NCBI GenBank assembly: GCA_048938445.1
Contig: JBHLME010000138.1
Span: forward strand, 1 to 11,495
DNA from: Promethearchaeota archaeon
GTDB taxonomy: Archaea; Asgardarchaeota; Lokiarchaeia; Sigyniarchaeales; SOKP01
Direction: 5' to 3'
DNA: 11,495 bases
Shown here: one piece after another, positions 343 to 11,163 of the stretch
How positions within the stretch are numbered: the stretch's first letter is position 1
Layout of the letters: each line of letters opens with the position of its first letter
Program-made: the position numbers and the translations under genes
The notes under the pieces: generated by a model
What the model was told of the DNA's origin: nothing
Databases searched by the model: none
The model's input: only the letters and a program-made list of their open reading frames with translations

Positions 343-597
343 ATGAGTGATGAAAAAAATAATGATGTTGAAATTGTTGAAGAATTAGACACGAGAGGTT
401 TATTTTGTCCTGAACCTCTTTTTGAAACAAGAAATCTATCAGAAACTCTTGAAGCAGGTCAATGTTTTAGGGTCATTGCTGATGATCCTGCTGCTGATGA
501 AGATTTACATCGATGGGCAAAAAGGACTGATACAGAAGTAGTAGAGTTTAGAAAGGATGGAGATGATTTAATTTTCATATTTAGAAAAAAAAAATAA
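343..597 (+). CDS. tusA: TusA/SirA-family sulfur carrier protein
   Basis: LDTRGLFCPEP matches the TusA CPxP motif (Cys codon 406-408), plus ADDPAA..DL..W. The start is moved from TTG 334 to ATG 343 because GAGGT (330-334) lies 8 nt upstream, giving 84 aa. Confidence 0.93.
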   Translation: MSDEKNNDVEIVEELDTRGLFCPEPLFETRNLSETLEAGQCFRVIADDPAADEDLHRWAKRTDTEVVEFRKDGDDLIFIFRKKK

Positions 598-614: not shown

Positions 615-971
615 ATGGCAAAAAAATTATTATATGTACAAACGAGTGATAATCCAGAGCGCCAATATTCTCCATTAGTCTTAGCTCAAACAGCAAAAGC
701 CATGGATCTTGAACCTACAGTATATTACTTGGGAACTGCTCTTAGAATTCTAAAACCAGGTGAAGCGGATAATATTAAGTTAGGGAATTTTCCAACCGTG
801 AAAGAAATGATTGATAAAACATTAAGTATGGGTATTGAAATCTTGGTTTGTGAAGCATCTAAGAGGATGCTAGGATGGGAAAAAGTAGAATTAATTTCAG
901 GTGTTAAAATTGTTGGCGCTGCAACCTTAAATGATTTAGTATTGGAATCAGATGGAACCCTATGGTTTTAA
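615..971 (+). CDS. DsrE/DsrF-like sulfur relay protein (COG2044-type)
   Basis: 118 aa with the pattern KLLYVQTS..PER..P, GIEILVCEAS and GVKIVGAATL. The single Cys79 (849-851) is at the position of the DsrE/TusD active Cys78. Confidence 0.85.
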   Translation: MAKKLLYVQTSDNPERQYSPLVLAQTAKAMDLEPTVYYLGTALRILKPGEADNIKLGNFPTVKEMIDKTLSMGIEILVCEASKRMLGWEKVELISGVKIVGAATLNDLVLESDGTLWF

Positions 972-1005: not shown

Positions 1006-2196
1006 ATGAGCATGTATTTAGACAATCAGGCAGCAAAACCAATGGATCCTCGAGTATTTGAGGCGATGAAACCGTATTTTATGAAAGAATTTGGTAATCC
1101 CTCATCATTGCATCAATATGGTTTTACAGCTACTAACATTTTGGATGAATCCAGGCAAAAAGTAGCAAATTTCATCAATGCCTCTAGTTCTGATAATATT
1201 ATTTTTACTTCGGGAGCAACTGAATCGAATAATTTAGCAATTATCGGAGGAGCTTTACGTAATATAAAAAAAGGAAATCACATGATCATATCGGAAATTG
1301 AACATATATCAATTTTAAACATTGGTAAGTATTTAGAACGTCAAGGTTTCAAGGTGAGTAGGGTTCCTGTAGATAGATTTGGAATTGTTAATCTCAGTAA
1401 GTTAGAGAGATTAATAAATGATAAAACAGTATTAATATCTATTTCTACAGCAAGTAATGAAATAGGTTCCCTTCAACCCGTAGAAGAAATTGCTAAATTA
1501 GCAAATGAGCATAAGATTTGGTTTCACTCTGATGCTGTTGCCAGTGAAGCTACAATCCCTCTTGACGTACAGAAAGTACCTTTTGATCTATTAACTCTAT
1601 CATCCAATGATATTTATGGACCTAAAGGGGTTGGAGCATTATATCTAAAAAAGGGAATAAGAGTAAATCCTATTCTCATTGGAGGGGGACAAGAGAGTGG
1701 GATGAGATCTGGGTCTGAAAATATGCCAGGTATAGTTGGTTTTGCTAAAGCAGCTGAAATTATGAAAGAAGAAATGAAAAATGATGTTTCAAAAATAAAA
1801 CCTCTTAGAGATAAATTAATACAAGAAATTTTAAAAATACCTAAATCATATCTAAATGGACATCCCGAGAAAAGAACACCAGATAATTTAAATGTTAGGT
1901 TTGATTATATCGAGGGAGAATCATTGCTTTTATCATTGAAAGATGAGAATCTTGCTGTGGCATCAGGTTCGGCTTGTAGTTCAAAGACATTAGAACCCTC
2001 TCATACCTTAATGTCTTGTGGTCTTTTGCATGAAGAAGCACATGGGAGCTTACTATTAACATTAGGAAGATTTACAGAAGAGAAGGATATTGATAAAATC
2101 ATAGAAGTTTTACCCGGAATTGTTAAACGGTTGAGAATTTTATCACCACTTACCCCTTCAGATTTATTAAAACAACTTCAAGAGGAGGAAAATTAA
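1006..2196 (+). CDS. iscS: IscS/NifS-like group I cysteine desulfurase homologue lacking the PLP-binding lysine (probably not an active desulfurase)
   Basis: Motifs YLDN, FGNPSS, FTSGATESNN, EH, NEIG, YGPKGVGAL, GGGQE, RSGSEN and ASGSACSS (Cys codon 1975-1977). The canonical SxHK reads SSND (1600-1611). ATG 1006 with GAGGT at 991-995 is preferred over GTG 997. Confidence 0.93.
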   Translation: MSMYLDNQAAKPMDPRVFEAMKPYFMKEFGNPSSLHQYGFTATNILDESRQKVANFINASSSDNIIFTSGATESNNLAIIGGALRNIKKGNHMIISEIEHISILNIGKYLERQGFKVSRVPVDRFGIVNLSKLERLINDKTVLISISTASNEIGSLQPVEEIAKLANEHKIWFHSDAVASEATIPLDVQKVPFDLLTLSSNDIYGPKGVGALYLKKGIRVNPILIGGGQESGMRSGSENMPGIVGFAKAAEIMKEEMKNDVSKIKPLRDKLIQEILKIPKSYLNGHPEKRTPDNLNVRFDYIEGESLLLSLKDENLAVASGSACSSKTLEPSHTLMSCGLLHEEAHGSLLLTLGRFTEEKDIDKIIEVLPGIVKRLRILSPLTPSDLLKQLQEEEN

Positions 2197-2996
2197 TGAG
2201 TGTACATAAATATACTGAAAAAGTGATGGATCACTTTAGGAATCCAAGAAATGTAGGAACAATTGAGAATCCGGATGGTTATGGGAAAGTTGGAAACCCT
2301 GTTTGTGGAGACTTAATGGAAATGTTTCTTAAAATTGGTAAGAATGAAAATGGAGAAGATTTTATTGAAGATATTAAGTTCAGAACCTTTGGATGTGGTT
2401 CTGCAGTATCTACATCATCAATGGTAACTGAAATGGCTAAAGGGATGACACTTGATGAAGCATATAAGATAACTCGAAGTGATGTTGCCGAAGAATTAGA
2501 TGGGCTTCCGCCAATTAAAATGCATTGCTCGAATTTAGCTGCTGATGCGTTGAAGGCTGCAATAAATAATTATCGTGAAGGTACCAAACCAGAAATTGAA
2601 GTGGTAACTTCTTGTCAACTTGAAGTACGAGTTATTTTAGGAGTAGATGAATTCAAAGGTAAAGGAGTATATACGGAAATCCCTAATTTGGAGGAATTGA
2701 GAGAAAAAAGAGCTCTAGTAGTTGATTCCGGAGATGAATCCTTGGAACTAGCCTTAAAATTGACGGAATATACAGGAAGAGTTATATTAATCACATCAGC
2801 AAAAGAGATACCTGGAACTTCGGATATTGCAAAAAAATTAAAACAATCGGATGTAAAAATTTTACATCAATCAGAACTCAATGAAGTGAAAGGAGAATTA
2901 GACGAAGTAGAAAAAGTTATCATCCATGATTTTGATGAGAATGAGAATTATGAACTATTTGTAGATGCCGTAATAATTTTAGATTATAAAAAATAA
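2196..2996 (+). CDS. iscU: IscU/NifU Fe-S scaffold fused to a C-terminal degenerate thioredoxin-reductase-like (NADPH-binding-type) domain
   Basis: Residues 1-128 contain HFRNPRNVG, GNPVC37GD39, FGC67GSA and LPPIKMH110C111. Residues ~146-263 resemble the TrxB middle domain. The start overlaps the iscS stop (TAATG, 2194-2198), with GAGGAGG at 2182-2188. Confidence 0.92.
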   Translation: MSVHKYTEKVMDHFRNPRNVGTIENPDGYGKVGNPVCGDLMEMFLKIGKNENGEDFIEDIKFRTFGCGSAVSTSSMVTEMAKGMTLDEAYKITRSDVAEELDGLPPIKMHCSNLAADALKAAINNYREGTKPEIEVVTSCQLEVRVILGVDEFKGKGVYTEIPNLEELREKRALVVDSGDESLELALKLTEYTGRVILITSAKEIPGTSDIAKKLKQSDVKILHQSELNEVKGELDEVEKVIIHDFDENENYELFVDAVIILDYKK

Positions 2997-3004
2997 TTTT
3001 TTTT
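2997..3004 (+). terminator. Oligo-T tract, candidate archaeal-type terminator after iscU
   Basis: T8 run immediately after the TAA at 2994-2996. Confidence 0.35.
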
Positions 3005-3114
3005 CATACTATTTTTCTATAAAATTTTTAATAATTTGTAAGTTATGGAGCTTATAACACAAATTTATAACTTATAAAAATTAAATTAAAATCAAATTTT
3101 ATATTAAGAGAAAC

Positions 3115-5493
3115 ATGAAACGAGTAATTATTGTTGGTGGAGTAGCCGGAGGAGCTACTGCTGCTGCAAGATTAAGACGCCTTGAAGAAAATATTGAAAT
3201 TATTGTTCTTGAAAAGGGACTATATGTATCTTTTGCTAATTGTGGTCTTCCTTATTTTGTTGGAAATGTGATTAAAGACCGTGAACAATTAGAATTAATG
3301 ACACCTGAAACTTTTTTCAAACGATTCAATATTGATGTTCGGGTGCAACATGAAGCGATTGAAATTAATAAAGAAAATAAAGAAATTACTGTAAAAAACT
3401 GGAAAATGGACAATGAATACACTTTAAATTATGATTATTTAATTCTTTCTCCAGGAGCATCACCAATGATACCACCATTTAAGGGTCTTGATATGGTTCC
3501 TTCGTTTTCTTTACGAACTATTCCTGATTCGGTTAAAATTAGGGAATTCGCAGAAAAAAATAACGTTAAACACGCTACAATCATAGGCGGAGGATATATA
3601 GGTTTAGAAATGGCTGAAAACTTAAAAGAACGTGGTATTAAAGTAAAAATCATTGAAATGCTTGATCAAGTATTAGCACCCCTTGATAAAGAAATCGCTC
3701 AATTTGTGCACCAAGAACTAATTCTTAATTGTGTTTGTCTTCAATTAGGAGATGCTGTCGATTCTTTTGATTGTGAAAATCAATGTAACTACATCATACC
3801 TAAAAGCGGTAAAAAAATAGAAACAGATATGATTATCATATCAATTGGGGTGCAACCAGAAACAATTTTAGCAAAAGAAGCAAGACTTGATTTAGGTCCT
3901 AAAGGACATATTATAGTTAATGATAAGATGCAAACCTCAGATCCATCTATTTATGCTGTAGGAGATGCCATTCAAATAAAAAATTTCATCACTAATGATT
4001 TTACAGCAATACCTTTAGCGGGCCCAGCAAACAAGCAAGGAAGAATAGCTTCGGATAACATTGCAGGTCGAGATTCTAAATATAAAGGGGTTTTAGGAGC
4101 TTCAGTTCTAAAAGTATTTGATTTGACAATAGCATTTGTAGGTTTAAGTGAGAAACAAATAAAAGAAACTCAAATCAATTATGAAAAGATCTACGTGCAT
4201 CCGAATAATCATGCAGGATATTATCCAGGAGCAATCCCCATTACATTAAAATTATTATTTGAAATACCTAGTGGTAAGGTCTTAGGAGCTCAAGCCGTGG
4301 GAGGTCCCGGTACAGAAAAGCGCATTGATGTTATCTCAACTGTTATTAAATTTGGTGGCACTGTTTTTGATTTAGAGGAATTAGAACTAACTTATGCACC
4401 TCCATATGGATCAGCTAAAGATCCTGTTAACATGGCGGGTTTTGTAGCATCTAATGTCCTCAGAGGAGATCATCCAATTTGGCATTGGAATGAGTTAGAA
4501 GAGATAAAAAAAAATAATAGCATTATTATTGACGTGAGAACACCGGAGGAATATCAAGTGGGTACCATTGAAGGAGCAAAAAACATAAATGATTTGGAAC
4601 TGAGAGATAGAATAAACGAAATCCCAAAAAATAAGCACATATATGTCTTTTGCGAGGTAGGTTTTAGGGGATATTTAGCAGCCCGTTTTCTAATGCAAAA
4701 AGGATATGAGGTGAGAAATTTAAGTGGAGGATATAAACTTTATGAAATAGCGAAAGCTACGACAGAAGAAATTGCAGCTGCTTGCGGACCTTCAGAGGAA
4801 ATTATGGAAGAAATGATTGAAACAAAATCCACGGTCTCGGATGAATTTATAGAAGTTGATGCATGTGGATTATCATGTCCTGGTCCTTTAAATGCAATGA
4901 TCAAAAGTCTCGAGTCATTACCAGAAGGAAAGAAATTGAAAATTTACGCAACAGATCCAGGATTTAAAGCTAGTGTGGAAGCGTATGCGGAACTTAATGA
5001 AGCCATAAAATTACTATCTCTTAAAAAAGAGCAAGGAAAATTAGCTGCAGTTTTAGAAAAGGGTGATATAACTGTAGAAGAAGTAAAAGCTCCAGTGCAA
5101 ATTAAAAAGAAAACTAGAAGTGAATCAAGAGATCCTAATGCTCCTCCTCTCTCAGATATTAGTGCAGAGGAATTACACGAACGAATGAATTCAGAAGATG
5201 CCCCCGCAATATTAATTGATGTACGTTCTCCTCAAGAATATTATAGTCCTTCGGGTCATATAAAGAATACTAAATTAATGCCATTAGGAGATTTAATGCA
5301 TAATCTCGAAGCTATCAACGATTATAAGGATAAGGAAGTAGTAATGATATGCCATAGTGGATCGCGTTCCATGATGGCTTCTCAGCTTTTAGCAAGAGCA
5401 GGATTTAAGGACGTGAGAAATTTAACGGGAGGTATGATGATGTGGCATAGAAAGGGTTATCCTATAGAAGGAGTTCCTAAATATCAGTATTAA
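3115..5493 (+). CDS. FAD-dependent CoA-disulfide/persulfide reductase (CoADR/Npsr/CoAPR family) with C-terminal rhodanese, TusA and second rhodanese domains
   Basis: GGVAGG FAD motif, SFANC43GLPY redox Cys, GGGYIGLE NAD(P)H motif, GDA and YAPPYG. Rhodanese 1: IDVRTPEE...FC513EVGFRG. TusA domain: VDAC584GLSC588PGP...TDPGF. Rhodanese 2: IDVRSPQEY..GHI...IC746HSGSRS...NLTGGM..W. Confidence 0.92.
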   Translation: MKRVIIVGGVAGGATAAARLRRLEENIEIIVLEKGLYVSFANCGLPYFVGNVIKDREQLELMTPETFFKRFNIDVRVQHEAIEINKENKEITVKNWKMDNEYTLNYDYLILSPGASPMIPPFKGLDMVPSFSLRTIPDSVKIREFAEKNNVKHATIIGGGYIGLEMAENLKERGIKVKIIEMLDQVLAPLDKEIAQFVHQELILNCVCLQLGDAVDSFDCENQCNYIIPKSGKKIETDMIIISIGVQPETILAKEARLDLGPKGHIIVNDKMQTSDPSIYAVGDAIQIKNFITNDFTAIPLAGPANKQGRIASDNIAGRDSKYKGVLGASVLKVFDLTIAFVGLSEKQIKETQINYEKIYVHPNNHAGYYPGAIPITLKLLFEIPSGKVLGAQAVGGPGTEKRIDVISTVIKFGGTVFDLEELELTYAPPYGSAKDPVNMAGFVASNVLRGDHPIWHWNELEEIKKNNSIIIDVRTPEEYQVGTIEGAKNINDLELRDRINEIPKNKHIYVFCEVGFRGYLAARFLMQKGYEVRNLSGGYKLYEIAKATTEEIAAACGPSEEIMEEMIETKSTVSDEFIEVDACGLSCPGPLNAMIKSLESLPEGKKLKIYATDPGFKASVEAYAELNEAIKLLSLKKEQGKLAAVLEKGDITVEEVKAPVQIKKKTRSESRDPNAPPLSDISAEELHERMNSEDAPAILIDVRSPQEYYSPSGHIKNTKLMPLGDLMHNLEAINDYKDKEVVMICHSGSRSMMASQLLARAGFKDVRNLTGGMMMWHRKGYPIEGVPKYQY

Positions 5494-5590: not shown

Positions 5591-6619
5591 CTATTTATAT
5601 TTTGATTTTTCAATATATTTTAAGAGCTTATTATGATATTTTATTTTTCCAATTTTTCCCTTTTTCAAATATTCTTTTTCTATCTTATATTTTTTTTTGT
5701 AATTATCTTCAATCAATGAATGAGTAAGGATTGCAAGCATCATTGATACTTCAGCAAATAAAGTAAACCATTCAGTACTTGTAATTGTAAGTCCGAATTC
5801 CGAGAAACTTTCAGGAAAATATGGAGAAAGAAAAAATAATAAATAAAATATGCACATAATACATGCTAAGAATGCATGAGATCTTGGAACCTTATTATTT
5901 AGATATGATATTAAACCATAAAGAGAAAAAAAAGTTAAACCCCCTAAAAAGTAAAAAATCGCAGCAATAACATGATAAATCCTTAAATTTTCAGGAAAAA
6001 TACCAACCAAAAAAATACCTAAAGTTAAAGCTACATTTGATAATGCCATTAATTTTATTATTTTTTTTTGATTCACCTTTTTTTTCAATTTTTGAATCTC
6101 AAAAACATGGAAAAATAAGATTATACCACTTGAGATGATCCATCCTGTATTAAATACAATATTTGCGCCATTTGGACCGACTCCTAAATCGCTAATAAAA
6201 TTTTGAAAGATTGAATAATTAGGATTTATATTAAGATATAATATTACAGCTGTTAAAGTTGAAATTATAAATAGAATTATACCTATGAATCCAAAAATAT
6301 CACCAGGAATTTTCTCATAAACCTCCTCAAAGAAATGATCAATTTTTTTATCAATTTTAATCAACCAATCATCAATTTCAATTAATAAATTTTCAAATTT
6401 GGCTAATATAGTTAATTCTTCTTTATCATTAGCTCCACTTTTAGACTTATTATCATAATATTTATTTAATTCCTCCCTATTTTCATTAAAATTTTTGAAA
6501 ATTTGTTTTAATTTAAGAGCATCTTCTTCATTTTTTTCTATAATTGCTTGTCGATATCTTAATTCTTTAATTTTGTTTTCTGATTTATTTATTAATTCAT
6601 TATGTTTGCTTTCAGCCAT
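5591..6619 (-). CDS. DUF998/Frag1-like 6-TM membrane protein with an N-terminal coiled-coil region (paralog 1)
   Basis: About 100 aa of charged helical N-terminus, then six hydrophobic segments. Motifs YSIFQNFISDLG, FN.G, GIFPE..HVIAA..F and EW are typical of DUF998. Confidence 0.72.
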   Translation of the reverse strand: MAESKHNELINKSENKIKELRYRQAIIEKNEEDALKLKQIFKNFNENREELNKYYDNKSKSGANDKEELTILAKFENLLIEIDDWLIKIDKKIDHFFEEVYEKIPGDIFGFIGIILFIISTLTAVILYLNINPNYSIFQNFISDLGVGPNGANIVFNTGWIISSGIILFFHVFEIQKLKKKVNQKKIIKLMALSNVALTLGIFLVGIFPENLRIYHVIAAIFYFLGGLTFFSLYGLISYLNNKVPRSHAFLACIMCIFYLLFFLSPYFPESFSEFGLTITSTEWFTLFAEVSMMLAILTHSLIEDNYKKKYKIEKEYLKKGKIGKIKYHNKLLKYIEKSKYK

Positions 6620-7105: not shown

Positions 7106-8122
7106 TTATTTCGAGAGGTTAATTTTAATTTTAGGTTTAATAATTCCAAGATCTCTAATATTTTCTCTTTCTTTTTCAAATTTTCTTAAATTAAGGTCTT
7201 CAGCTATAGAATGTCTCAATATTGTAAGCATCATTAATATTTGAGCGATAAAAGTTAACCATTCTAAACTGGTTATAGTTAACCCTATCTCAGAAAATGA
7301 TTCAGGGTAATATGGAGATATAAAAAAAGCAATATGACATGCATATGTAAAATAAGCGATTATAAAGTGAGTAAATGGAATTTCTTTATATAATACTGCT
7401 AATATCGCATAATATGAAAAGAATCCAAAACTACCTAAAAAGTAAAATTCTACGCCAATGACGTGAAACACAAATAAATGTTCCGAAAAAATTGCGACAA
7501 AGCAGATTCCTAATGAAAAGGAGATATTTGATAATGCCATTAATTTAAATATGTAATTTCTATTAATTTTTTTTTTTAATTTTTTAATTTCATAAATATT
7601 AAAAAATAAAAACATCATGCTTGAAATTATCCATCCAGTATTAAATACAATACTTGCTTGAATTGGACCAATACCTAGATCACTAATCCAATTATTAAAG
7701 ATAGAATATTCGGGATCAATATATAGATACAATGCTAATGCTAAAAATGTTGAAAATGCATAAATCATAATTCCTAAAATTCCAAAAAAATATCCCGGGA
7801 TTTTATCATAAACATTTTCAAAGAATTGATTAATTTTTTCATGAATTTTTTTTTCTTTATCAATCTGTTTAGATTTTAATACCTCAAATCTTGAAAAAAC
7901 AGTTGATGCTTCCATATCATCAATTTTACCTTTAAAATGTTTCACATTATAATCATGTAGACTCTCTCTCTTTTCATGAAGTCCCTTTAACAGAAGTTCA
8001 AGTTTGTTAGTATCTTCTTCAACTTTTTCTATAACTATTTGATGATTGCTAGTTTGTTTAGTGCTATCTTGAGATTTATTCATTAAATTCTTGTTATTAC
8101 TTACAGTCATTTTGTTTATCAC
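7106..8122 (-). CDS. DUF998/Frag1-like 6-TM membrane protein with an N-terminal coiled-coil region (paralog 2)
   Basis: Colinear with paralog 1: FFENVYDKIPG, YSIFNNWISDLGIGP, IVFNTGWIISS, KLMALSN and SPYYPESFSEIGLTITSLEW. The start is uncertain (GTG 8122, ATG 8110 or ATG 8083). Confidence 0.72.
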   Translation of the reverse strand: MINKMTVSNNKNLMNKSQDSTKQTSNHQIVIEKVEEDTNKLELLLKGLHEKRESLHDYNVKHFKGKIDDMEASTVFSRFEVLKSKQIDKEKKIHEKINQFFENVYDKIPGYFFGILGIMIYAFSTFLALALYLYIDPEYSIFNNWISDLGIGPIQASIVFNTGWIISSMMFLFFNIYEIKKLKKKINRNYIFKLMALSNISFSLGICFVAIFSEHLFVFHVIGVEFYFLGSFGFFSYYAILAVLYKEIPFTHFIIAYFTYACHIAFFISPYYPESFSEIGLTITSLEWLTFIAQILMMLTILRHSIAEDLNLRKFEKERENIRDLGIIKPKIKINLSK

Positions 8123-8361: not shown

Positions 8362-9120
8362 TCAGAAAATGTATGGTATGAGCGCTTTTCTCTTTTTTGG
8401 ATAATCTGAAAATGTTTTTAAATACCATATATGGTTGCTTCTTGCCCGAGGAGTAAGATTTGCAAAAGTCCATATTGCAAAAATTAATCCTGGGAGTGAC
8501 CAGGTCATTATTGCCCAGCCAAACCATTCTGTTATCTCACCTAAATAGCTAGGACAACTTACATATTCAAACATCCCCCCATAAGGGATTTTAAAACAAG
8601 TCTCACCAGGTTTTCGTAATTTACGTATAATACGATCAGAAACTAGATGTATAATGAAACCATGAAAAAATAATATGATTCCTATAATAAATGCAGGATT
8701 CAACAACCAACTTGTTTCATAACCTCCAGATAGTGTATTTATCCATCTTCCTTGGAGAAATACATTTATCGAATTGAATATCATCCCAGAAATCACTATA
8801 GACAGTGGCATTGGATTATTACCTCTCATCAATTTCGGAAAAATGAAAGTTCGATAGCTATAATGCATTAAAAATAACGTGGAAAACAAAATTATTACTG
8901 GATAGAAATGATATTTGCCTATAATATAAAGGATTATATATAAAATGATAGCGGGTGATTCCATTAATACCCAACCTGTTTTATCATTGATTGTTTTACC
9001 TGAAGTTTTCATAAAGTGCTGACCATACCCTGCTGTTACTTTAAATAACGAGAAAAAGATAATAATTGCAGGAATAAGTATGAGAATCATTAAACAATTG
9101 AAATAGAATATCTCTTCCAT
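8362..9120 (-). CDS. 3-oxo-5-alpha-steroid 4-dehydrogenase (steroid 5-alpha-reductase, SRD5A1/2/DET2-like), paralog A
   Basis: AGYG, GWVLME54SP, HY87SYR, SD..IR.LRKPGE..FKIP.GG.FEYVSCP.YLGEI.EW.GWA, RA..H.WY and C-terminal YPKKRKALIPYIF. Confidence 0.92.
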   Translation of the reverse strand: MEEIFYFNCLMILILIPAIIIFFSLFKVTAGYGQHFMKTSGKTINDKTGWVLMESPAIILYIILYIIGKYHFYPVIILFSTLFLMHYSYRTFIFPKLMRGNNPMPLSIVISGMIFNSINVFLQGRWINTLSGGYETSWLLNPAFIIGIILFFHGFIIHLVSDRIIRKLRKPGETCFKIPYGGMFEYVSCPSYLGEITEWFGWAIMTWSLPGLIFAIWTFANLTPRARSNHIWYLKTFSDYPKKRKALIPYIF

Positions 9121-9384
9121 TTTTTATAGCACTTAAGTCGTATTAAGGAATATTTATTAAATTTTCGTCTATTTTTTGATTAATACTAATATAATTATAA
9201 TTATTTATTATTACATTTAATCTTAACAAAAAAAGGAATTTTTCATTAAAAAGATGAAAAATTTATGTGATAATATTAGTTGTTTTTTTTATTCTAATTT
9301 ATTATCATAAGTTTTATAGATAGGCTGATATATTGTTATTTAATAGTGAATTCAATTTTTAAAAACATTTTAAAAGGTGAAAAC

Positions 9385-9975
9385 ATGAAAGAAACTCCTA
9401 AAAAGTTATTTACAGCCTATGTGGGGGAATCCCAAGCTAGAAATCGCTATACTTTCTGGGCTAAAATTGCTAAAAAAGAAGGTTATGCTCTAATTTCAAA
9501 CGTCTTTTTAGAAACTGCGGATCAAGAATTACAGCATGGAACATGGTTTTATACAATGCTTCAACAATTTAAAAAAGAAGAGTCTTTCGATGAAATGAAG
9601 GTTTTACCCGACGCAGAATTTCATACAACATTCGGAAACACCATTGAAAATTTAACATCTGCAATCGCAGGAGAAGACATGGAATGGAAAACGCTTTATC
9701 CCGATATTGCTGATACAGCAGATAAAGAAGGATATCCAGATATTGCTACTAGAGTAAGAGCAATTATAAAAGCAGAAAAACATCATTCCGAGAGATATGG
9801 AAAACTCCTAAAATTGGTTGGAGATGACGCATTCTTCAAAAGAGGGAAAAAAATCGTATGGGTTTGCATGGAATGTGGATATGAGGTCGAAATGGACGAA
9901 ATACCAAAAAATTGGAAATGCCCTTCCTGTGACCATCCTAGAGCAAATTTTCGAAAGAAATGCGAAGAATTCTAA
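9385..9975 (+). CDS. rbr: Rubrerythrin
   Basis: AYVGESQARNRY, ETADQELQHG, AIAGE..E...LYP and AEKHH di-iron motifs, plus a C-terminal rubredoxin-like CMEC...CPSC. ATG 9385 has AGGTGA (9375-9380) upstream and is preferred over GTG 9346, giving 196 aa. Confidence 0.95.
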   Translation: MKETPKKLFTAYVGESQARNRYTFWAKIAKKEGYALISNVFLETADQELQHGTWFYTMLQQFKKEESFDEMKVLPDAEFHTTFGNTIENLTSAIAGEDMEWKTLYPDIADTADKEGYPDIATRVRAIIKAEKHHSERYGKLLKLVGDDAFFKRGKKIVWVCMECGYEVEMDEIPKNWKCPSCDHPRANFRKKCEEF

Positions 9976-10154: not shown

Positions 10155-10913
10155 TTAGAAAATAAAAGGAATTAGTGCTTTTCGGTCTTTTGGATAATTA
10201 GAAAATGTCTTTAGGTACCATTTATGATTACTTCTTGCTCGAGGGGCAAGATTGGCGAAAGTCCATATTGCAAAAACCAATCCAGGAAGTGACCAAGTCA
10301 TGATTGCCCACCCAAACCATTCTGTTATTTCGCCAAGATAACTAGGACAACTCACGAATTCAAACAACCCTCCACGAGGGATTTTAAAACCTGTCTCACC
10401 AGTTTTCCGTAAATGCCTTATGATTCGATCTGATGTATAGTGAGTAAAAAAACCCATAAAAAATATTATTATCCCTACAAAGAATATAGGAGATAATAAC
10501 CAACTTATTTCATAACCACCTGATAAAGTATTTATCCACCTTCCTTGAAGGTATGCATTTGCTGTATTGAATAACATCCCCAATATGATAATCGATAATG
10601 GCATCTGATGCTTTCCTCTGATTAATATTGGAAAAATGAACGTTCGATAACTATAATGAAATAAAAATAACGTGGAAAATAAGATCGTTACTGGTTTGAA
10701 ATGATAATCTCCTATAATGTAAAGAATTAAATAAAAAATTACAACAGGAAATTCCATTATTATCCAGCCAGCTTTGTCATTGATAGATTTCCCCCATTTT
10801 CTTGTAGTATGTTGACCATAACCTGCTGGTATTTTAAGTAGCGTTATAAAGACTACTATTGCAATTACAATCATGATTATCATAAACAAGTTGAAGAATA
10901 AAATCTCATCCAT
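10155..10913 (-). CDS. 3-oxo-5-alpha-steroid 4-dehydrogenase (steroid 5-alpha-reductase-like), paralog B
   Basis: Same motifs as paralog A and the same length (252 aa). A manual ungapped count gives about 182/252 (72%) identity. Ends YPKDRKALIPFIF. Confidence 0.92.
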   Translation of the reverse strand: MDEILFFNLFMIIMIVIAIVVFITLLKIPAGYGQHTTRKWGKSINDKAGWIIMEFPVVIFYLILYIIGDYHFKPVTILFSTLFLFHYSYRTFIFPILIRGKHQMPLSIIILGMLFNTANAYLQGRWINTLSGGYEISWLLSPIFFVGIIIFFMGFFTHYTSDRIIRHLRKTGETGFKIPRGGLFEFVSCPSYLGEITEWFGWAIMTWSLPGLVFAIWTFANLAPRARSNHKWYLKTFSNYPKDRKALIPFIF

Positions 10914-11163
10914 TTTTTAGTGCGGATTAGTTGTAGTTTCACATATAGATTCTATAAGAACATTGATAATTTATACTTTTATCAATTTATTTGATTAATC
11001 TTAAGAAATTTCAATAGATTCAATATATACTCTTAGAATCGGAATTTATTAATTTAAACTTACAAATAAAAATGTCTAAAGAGGTTTTAATTTAAAAGAA
11101 CAATTCTTAAATATCATCGCGTTAATTTACACTCAACAAATTCAAGTTATTTGAGTGTTAAAA

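Follow-up and report, generated by a model that had tools for sequence, protein, structure and literature searches.

What is the role of a domain that has kept the fold of a nucleotide-binding reductase module and lost its binding motifs, when it is joined to a scaffold protein for iron-sulfur clusters? This question is raised by a gene in an 11,495-nt stretch of DNA from a Promethearchaeota archaeon (hereafter, the window). The gene, here termed iscU*, occupies positions 2196-2996 of the plus strand and encodes a 266-aa protein composed of an IscU domain, a linker, and a relic NAD(P)H-type domain. The start codon (ATG) overlaps with the stop of iscS, and the reading frame has no internal stops. 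An earlier note on this DNA had described a fusion of IscU to an NADPH-type domain of the thioredoxin reductase (TrxR) family, and both the Pfam/TIGRFAM matches and the predicted fold agree with that description.

The IscU domain (residues 5-129; positions 2208-2582, plus strand) matches Pfam NifU_N with an E-value of 7e-46 and scores above the cut-off of TIGR03419. Cys37, Asp39, Cys67, His110, and Cys111 are all invariant among 55 aligned fusions, and a structure comparison with chain C of 4eb5 gave a Z score of 22.4 and an rmsd of 1.0 at 65% identity. The protein thus combines what characterizes an IscU/MisU scaffold, that is, a NifU_N domain with the Cys/Asp/His ligands next to an IscS homologue. 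Judged by its ligand residues, the IscU domain is an intact scaffold with a putative function in cluster assembly and transfer. In three-domain NifU proteins, an IscU domain is likewise extended at its C-terminus, and one of the added parts has been proposed as a ferredoxin replacement (PMC13066941, in part). iscU*, however, lacks both the central [2Fe-2S] domain and the Nfu domain, and the NifU model TIGR02000 aligned to residues 5-128 only and remained below its cut-off. The architecture is therefore not that of classical NifU, as had been noted. The linker (residues 130-145; positions 2583-2630, plus strand) appears flexible, with pLDDT values below 50 at residues 133-144. It contains Cys140 (positions 2613-2615), to which attention had been drawn before. 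All 121 near relatives examined carry this residue; among the distant relatives, a linker cysteine of any kind occurs in only 13 of 21.

The relic domain (residues 146-262; positions 2631-2981, plus strand) was characterized by its fold, its motifs, a predicted interface, and its dN/dS. Residues 147-261 match TIGR01292 (TrxR) with an E-value of 2e-11, but only at positions 117-232 of 300, which correspond to the middle domain, and the score of 43 bits is to be compared with a cut-off of 343. In the AlphaFold model of the protein (mean pLDDT of 82), two well-folded domains are connected by the low-confidence linker. Residues 145-265 superimpose on the middle domains of TrxR, AhpF, and FNR with Z scores of 17.8-18.8 and rmsd values of 1.6-2.0. 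The best two PDB sequence matches were 2zbw and 5xhu, and the former aligned with an rmsd of 1.6 across 121 columns. The C-terminal region thus has a TrxR-family middle-domain fold rather than an unrelated one. A search of the ESM Atlas returned generic Pyr_redox clusters only. Whereas the fold is that of the TrxB/AhpF middle domain, the sequence reads DSGDES in place of GGGxxA and TSA in place of HRR, and both a CxxC motif and an FAD domain are missing.

The fusion is a regular feature of the lineage. The best 120 protein-search matches to iscU* are 256-270 aa long and show 76-91% identity at 96-100% query coverage; those with a name belong to Promethearchaeota or Lokiarchaeota. A contig from X1, a sequencing run that possibly represents the source sample, covers positions 2426-2988 with zero differences. 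An assembly artefact or a one-off fusion was ruled out by the near-full-length relatives, the many genomes, and this contig, and the fusion is not unique to the assembly. A profile of the relic domain was then run on 301 genomes of the phylum, with E <1e-39 taken as a strong match. Strong matches occurred in the window's genome and in 64 of the other 68 genomes of the same family, in 5/7, 1/1, and 1/1 genomes of three related families, and in 69 of the 76 genomes of family f9, which includes a genome with the label Thorarchaeota. Family f24 yielded one strong match in 21 genomes, on a 2.5-kb contig that encodes a protein 82% identical to that of the window and may have been mis-binned. At the same threshold, the remaining families among the 301 genomes gave no match. 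The relic domain is conserved across two classes. Among 1.84 billion representatives searched, the top matches were more short fusions or fragments, with no taxon recorded; a look-up of ten short-form representatives gave none either. One short fusion bears the NCBI label of a bacterial genus; its genome was placed in the window's class, and the label was rejected as a sign of a range beyond Asgard archaea. A plasmid collection gave no match.

The gene order provides a first hint at the partner of iscU*. In the window, the conserved cluster starts with tusA, encoding a sulfur-carrier protein (positions 343-597, plus strand; Pfam TusA, E 4e-18), followed by a gene for a dsrE-family sulfur carrier (positions 615-971, plus strand; Pfam DsrE, E 3e-13) and iscS (positions 1006-2196, plus strand). 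The order tusA-(dsrE)-iscS-iscU* recurs: among 16 wide short-fusion loci, 13 show a tusA motif and 10 a dsrE motif. A promoter/terminator scan with a bacterial model yielded hits at chance level only. The IscS is of the Archaeoglobus type. It carries Asp202 instead of the PLP lysine (codon at positions 1609-1611) and retains the loop cysteine Cys324 (positions 1975-1977), the two features of the Archaeoglobus-type pair. The best PDB match is 4eb5 (E 3e-145), which has the same Asp motif, while 4r5f has Lys. Asp or Glu occupies the PLP site at all 41 short-fusion loci readable there (45 examined), and both D202 and C324 are present in 14 of 14 diverse IscS partners.

The minimal MIS-type pair IscS2-IscU of Archaeoglobus fulgidus (4eb5, 4eb7, 4hvk; D199K variant 4r5f) has the same PLP-site Asp and loop Cys. 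Its IscU chain (138 residues in 4eb5), in contrast, has no C-terminal domain. According to portions of two publications (PMC7585200, PMC8918507), A. fulgidus IscS has no desulfurase activity and donates a cysteine ligand to the cluster. By analogy, the IscS of the window is presumably desulfurase-dead. The earlier note had overlooked that this IscS lacks its PLP lysine and would therefore not be expected to form a persulfide from cysteine, which leaves the suggested persulfide reduction unsupported. The window's genome also carries a canonical Lys-bearing IscS-IscU pair, a SufB-type gene, and two TrxRs with CxxC, so the cell does not depend on the tusA-iscU* cluster for cysteine desulfuration. 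Four further IscU-like genes were seen in this genome (G000, contigs C134, C135, C211, and C214). One of them adjoins the canonical Lys-bearing IscS, and another clusters, as judged by eye, with Mrp/NBP35-like and NifB/NifX-like genes.

These surroundings lend some plausibility to the view that the relic is a functionless leftover, kept because it folds harmlessly: in other archaea, a plain IscU follows a Lys-less IscS, and the canonical IscS-IscU pair and the SufB-type gene are at hand in the same cell. Selection argues otherwise. In 11 of 11 comparisons with close orthologues, the relic domain showed a dN of 0.07-0.11 with dS >1.5 or saturated, and for the IscU domain of the same orthologues the dN was 0.03-0.07. 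By this measure, the relic domain is under purifying selection. Charged residues within it are invariant, and it has been kept throughout most of two distant families (64/68 and 69/76 genomes, see above). We thus regard a mere leftover as highly improbable. As a related observation, locus L068 (positions 1649-3861, family f5) has the order tusA-dsrE-iscS-plain iscU, and its IscS has Ser, not Asp, at the position of the PLP lysine.

The descent of the domain can be traced through longer proteins. Family f21, labelled Jordarchaeia/Freyarchaeota, has a 448-aa protein in which IscU is fused to a whole flavoprotein, encoded behind tusA and an Asp-type iscS. A second whole fusion of 443-444 aa is abundant, and its named members are mostly Ca. 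Methanoperedens. These loci have the order dsrE-iscS-iscU+flavoprotein (21 loci, a dsrE motif in 13). The IscS PLP site is Asp or Glu at 2/2 Jordarchaeia loci, and it is Asp at all 11 Methanoperedens-type sites read. The whole fusions share this context, a Lys-less iscS with tusA or dsrE, and the conserved R172, K221, E239, and D257 columns with the short form, but differ from it by having kept both FAD halves. At one of the four Jordarchaeia loci read (L044, positions 1459-2802), the fusion reads as two frames, through a true split or an error of assembly, with a 129-aa IscU and a 304-aa flavoprotein, and 304-aa records similar to the latter occur in the same sequence cluster. Longer forms of 467-2000 aa, above the size of the 443-448-aa fusions, were sought with the relic domain alone, and none was found among 958 candidates.

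Along this series, the nucleotide-binding motifs fade. Stand-alone relatives have GxG in 24/24 and HR in 23/24 proteins, Methanoperedens-type fusions in 81/83 and 46/83, and Jordarchaeia fusions in 9/9 and 0/9, the last with their FAD motifs kept. Among 145 short forms, the first Gly of GxG, HR, CxxC, and the FAD motif are each found in none. The C-terminal FAD motif is present in 82 of 83 Methanoperedens-type proteins. A strict FAD-motif pattern counts only two of the 83, but the examples inspected differ from it by one letter, and both FAD halves are present in the long fusions. CxxC is absent from all of the Methanoperedens-type (0/83), Jordarchaeia (0/9), and other long fusions (0/4) as well as from the stand-alone relatives (0/24). 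Absence of CxxC is also what defines TrxR-like FNRs (PMC10294844, in the section concerned). Because the nearest whole enzymes and the TrxR-like FNR matches have no CxxC, the parent of the relic domain was most likely a CxxC-less, FNR-like flavoreductase and not TrxB, and CxxC was probably never present in this lineage. Descent from a true CxxC-bearing TrxB, as implied by the earlier note, is thus not supported by the nearest whole enzymes. Of the motif losses listed there, those of GGGxxA and HRR stand, while CxxC was probably not lost, since the nearest intact enzymes do not have it either. With TrxR-like FNRs the relic shares a TrxR fold without CxxC, although it comprises the middle domain only, has no FAD domain, GGGxxA, or HRR, and is fused to a scaffold. 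The difference from TrxB extends to CxxC, the FAD domain, and the NADPH motifs alike.

The trees were less uniform. The short forms constitute a single group with a support of 100 in both a 42-row and a 100-row tree. In the LG+G4 tree of 42 rows, a branch with a support of 95/90 has all short and long fusions on the same side, but a single group of short forms and CxxC enzymes was not rejected by an AU test (p 0.37). In the mixture-model quick tree of 100 rows, the short forms stand away from the long fusions, without a definite place among the CxxC-less enzymes. A weak tree of the IscU domain placed them with Jordarchaeia and three plain IscU rows (73/93), with the Methanoperedens-type proteins apart. 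In trees with FNR-like representatives, which include no characterized FNR sequence, the relic was unplaced or grouped with long fusions, and its nearest whole enzymes were an archaeal CxxC-less subfamily and not the FNR-like rows. One of the two trees favours a single origin of all fusions. Such an origin, with the short form arising by loss of both FAD halves, would be the simplest reading of architecture, gene order, and shared residues. The sister of the short forms in the 42-row tree (90/85) is P0327, a long fusion of 441 aa whose nucleotide site has partly decayed and which is possibly an intermediate.

Does the relic still bind a pyridine nucleotide, as part of a split reductase or a nucleotide sensor that works with a separate FAD-only protein? 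The fold is intact, G179, S182, and T200 are conserved at 0.90-0.97, and the Jordarchaeia enzymes show that HR can be missing while the FAD motifs are kept. On the other hand, the first Gly and HR are missing from every short form, as given above, and a search of the window's genome (96.5% complete) with the Jordarchaeia flavoprotein revealed no protein with the FAD halves but without the middle domain. A whole stand-alone relative, which is unlinked, is present in one Thorarchaeota genome, and two Lokiarchaeia genomes tested contain none closer than 33-34%. A split reductase or sensor is very unlikely on these grounds.

A different function is suggested by complex prediction with two IscS chains (residues 3-381), the IscU domain (residues 5-128), and the relic domain (residues 146-262) supplied as separate chains, in which the relic was scored. 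It is predicted to dock on the upstream IscS with an ipSAE of 0.68 (median of three runs), compared with 0.00 for the best of three controls, including one in which IscS was replaced. The contacts agreed to 100% between runs, and the partner pLDDT was at least 88. Among solved complexes, 116 of 157 attained the mark applied, as did 2 of 215 mismatched pairs; for the present prediction, these figures are only a rough guide. The score expresses the confidence of the model itself and comes from a single job, which differs in kind from the calibration set. Searches of the PDB by sequence and structure revealed no solved structure in which an IscS binds a domain of this type, which makes it less likely that the model reproduced a known complex. 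The predicted site on IscS has two halves: residues 121-136 (positions 1366-1413, plus strand; contacts 121, 123-124, 132, and 135-136) and residues 336-342, just after the Cys324 loop (positions 2011-2031, plus strand; contacts 336-339 and 341-342). The relic contributes residues 170-172, 194-195, 221, 235-239, and 252-257. The former nucleotide residues 177-182 and 200-203 are outside the interface.

Conservation points in the same direction. Among 29 diverse short fusions, the 13 interface positions scored (of 14) have a mean conservation of 0.84, compared with 0.57 at 105 others (permutation p 0.0001), although the test is not independent, since its sequences overlap with the alignment fed to the complex prediction. 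The old nucleotide face is mostly variable in the same proteins. R172, K221, and E239 are conserved at 0.97-1.0 in short, Jordarchaeia, and Methanoperedens-type fusions, and the same columns reach only 0.25-0.54 in stand-alone relatives. That these residues are fixed in long fusions but not in stand-alone proteins suggests that the IscS-facing side already anchored the whole enzyme. The IscS side of the interface is barely more conserved than the rest of the protein (0.83 vs 0.77), and K132 also occurs in Lys-less IscS proteins next to a plain IscU (3/3). A. fulgidus IscS has Gly, Phe, and Gln in place of D123, K132, and R135. With the motifs gone and docking the most likely role, the earlier proposal of a non-catalytic docking module gains support; the partner predicted here is IscS.

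The earlier note had instead suggested thioredoxin or the neighbouring flavoprotein as a possible partner, to be recruited by the relic for the delivery of electrons. The flavoprotein is encoded downstream (positions 3115-5493, plus strand) as a fusion of a CoA-disulfide/persulfide reductase with rhodanese, TusA, and rhodanese domains; it is 792 aa long, and solved relatives span only its first ~545 residues. It resembles CoA-disulfide and persulfide reductases and, within the window's family, lies next to iscU* at 15 of 29 short loci. The genome also has the two CxxC TrxRs mentioned above. However, the reductase is a neighbour in only one of the 16 wide loci, which belongs to the window's family, and in none from other families, whereas the relic spans two classes. 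It is thus a neighbour in the window's family alone and no fixed part of the cluster. Moreover, the relic lineage has no CxxC, and the most conserved face of the relic is occupied by IscS in the model. Recruitment of either protein is quite unlikely. One TrxR of the genome (L002, positions 1483-2406; G000:C161) has CxxC and degenerate NADPH motifs, with neither GGGxxA nor HRR, as in the ferredoxin-dependent flavin thioredoxin reductases.

A frataxin- or IscX-like accessory function is another candidate. According to this idea, an acidic hairpin of the relic would have a regulatory effect on assembly and would bind either iron or the basic IscS patch. The relic has a net charge of about -12 in near and -10 in distant relatives, compared with -2 in the Methanoperedens-type and -4 in stand-alone domains; the hairpin (residues 244-251) has 6.5-6.9 acidic residues of 14, with E248 invariant; and K216 and R219 are retained by 13 of 14 partner IscS proteins. 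The equivalent patch of E. coli IscS binds acidic Fdx and CyaY (PMC3750173, in part). Yet the predicted interface names none of the IscS residues 215-219 and none of the hairpin, so a ferredoxin/frataxin-style docking of the hairpin on the arginine patch, considered as a candidate, is absent from the predicted complex. In the whole enzymes of Jordarchaeia, the hairpin is equally acidic (7.9 of 14). The basic patch may instead serve TusA, which also binds there in E. coli (an excerpt of PMC11302665). With the numbering offset, the predicted docking site would correspond approximately to E. coli IscS 125-140 and 340-346, and E. coli E334/R340 and D346/E347 mutants still bind ferredoxin (PMC3750173, same part). 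A frataxin-like function as the main role is unlikely, but it could come on top of the docking on IscS.

Based on the fusion, its conservation, the motif loss, the gene order, and the intact forms, all read from the sequences, together with the predicted complex, we consider it probable, though far from certain, that the relic serves as a non-catalytic clamp, by which IscU is kept on a desulfurase-dead IscS. A whole CxxC-less, FNR-like flavoreductase would once have been fused to IscU and would then have lost both halves of its FAD domain and the nucleotide-binding residues, with the middle domain kept. The relic would dock on the Lys-less IscS, close to both the Cys324 loop and the site of IscU, and the tethered scaffold would thus be held in place while a [2Fe-2S] cluster forms at the IscS-IscU interface. 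As suggested by the Archaeoglobus literature, IscS would provide a cysteine ligand and no sulfur; the gene order suggests that sulfur may come as sulfide or via TusA/DsrE. In the intact fusions, the same face would anchor the reductase on IscS, with the flavin supplying electrons. Further observations argue against the clamp. A plain IscU works with the Lys-less IscS in Archaeoglobus, so the clamp is not essential, and the invariant E248 of the acidic hairpin lies outside the named contacts and is left unexplained.

The iscU* system is a real, conserved, and newly found variant of the MIS/Archaeoglobus-type IscS-IscU machinery. Our literature search retrieved no description of the short or the whole fusion, in line with the earlier note, although the supplements of the MIS-defining study of Garcia et al. 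and of the Archaeoglobus papers could list them. MIS was defined in that phylogenomic study (as cited in PMC13066941, in part). According to passages of the same 2026 review, the electron donors of minimal MIS and SMS systems are unclear, and how Archaeoglobus IscS-IscU builds clusters without desulfurase activity is listed as open elsewhere (PMC8918507, in part). A wider reading, which we put forward tentatively and judge somewhat more likely to be wrong than right, is that these are minimal archaeal Fe-S machines with their own donor. An IscU-flavoreductase would be anchored on a dead IscS via the back face of its NAD(P)H domain, and the anchoring site would not be the ferredoxin/frataxin patch; sulfur would come from TusA/DsrE. 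The enzyme would be intact in Methanoperedens, its nucleotide site partly lost in Jordarchaeia, and only the anchor left in Lokiarchaeia and Thorarchaeia, where it would form a new accessory domain. If true, an electron donor would be named for MIS-type systems, and an enzyme domain would have turned into an assembly clamp. The intact IscU-flavoprotein fusion is a single-chain, assayable candidate for such a donor, and the short Asgard form lacks the flavin half by natural deletion, while its predicted interface is mapped and can be mutated. The locus also illustrates which Fe-S machinery Asgard archaea carry beyond canonical IscS-IscU and SufB.

Elsewhere in the window, two similar-looking membrane proteins are encoded on the minus strand (positions 5591-6619 and 7106-8122), the first of which matches DUF998. 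Positions 8362-9120 and 10155-10913 encode two 252-aa steroid 5-alpha-reductase-like paralogues, the second putatively so, with a rubrerythrin gene (positions 9346-9975) between them. A desulfoferrodoxin gene starts at position 11155.
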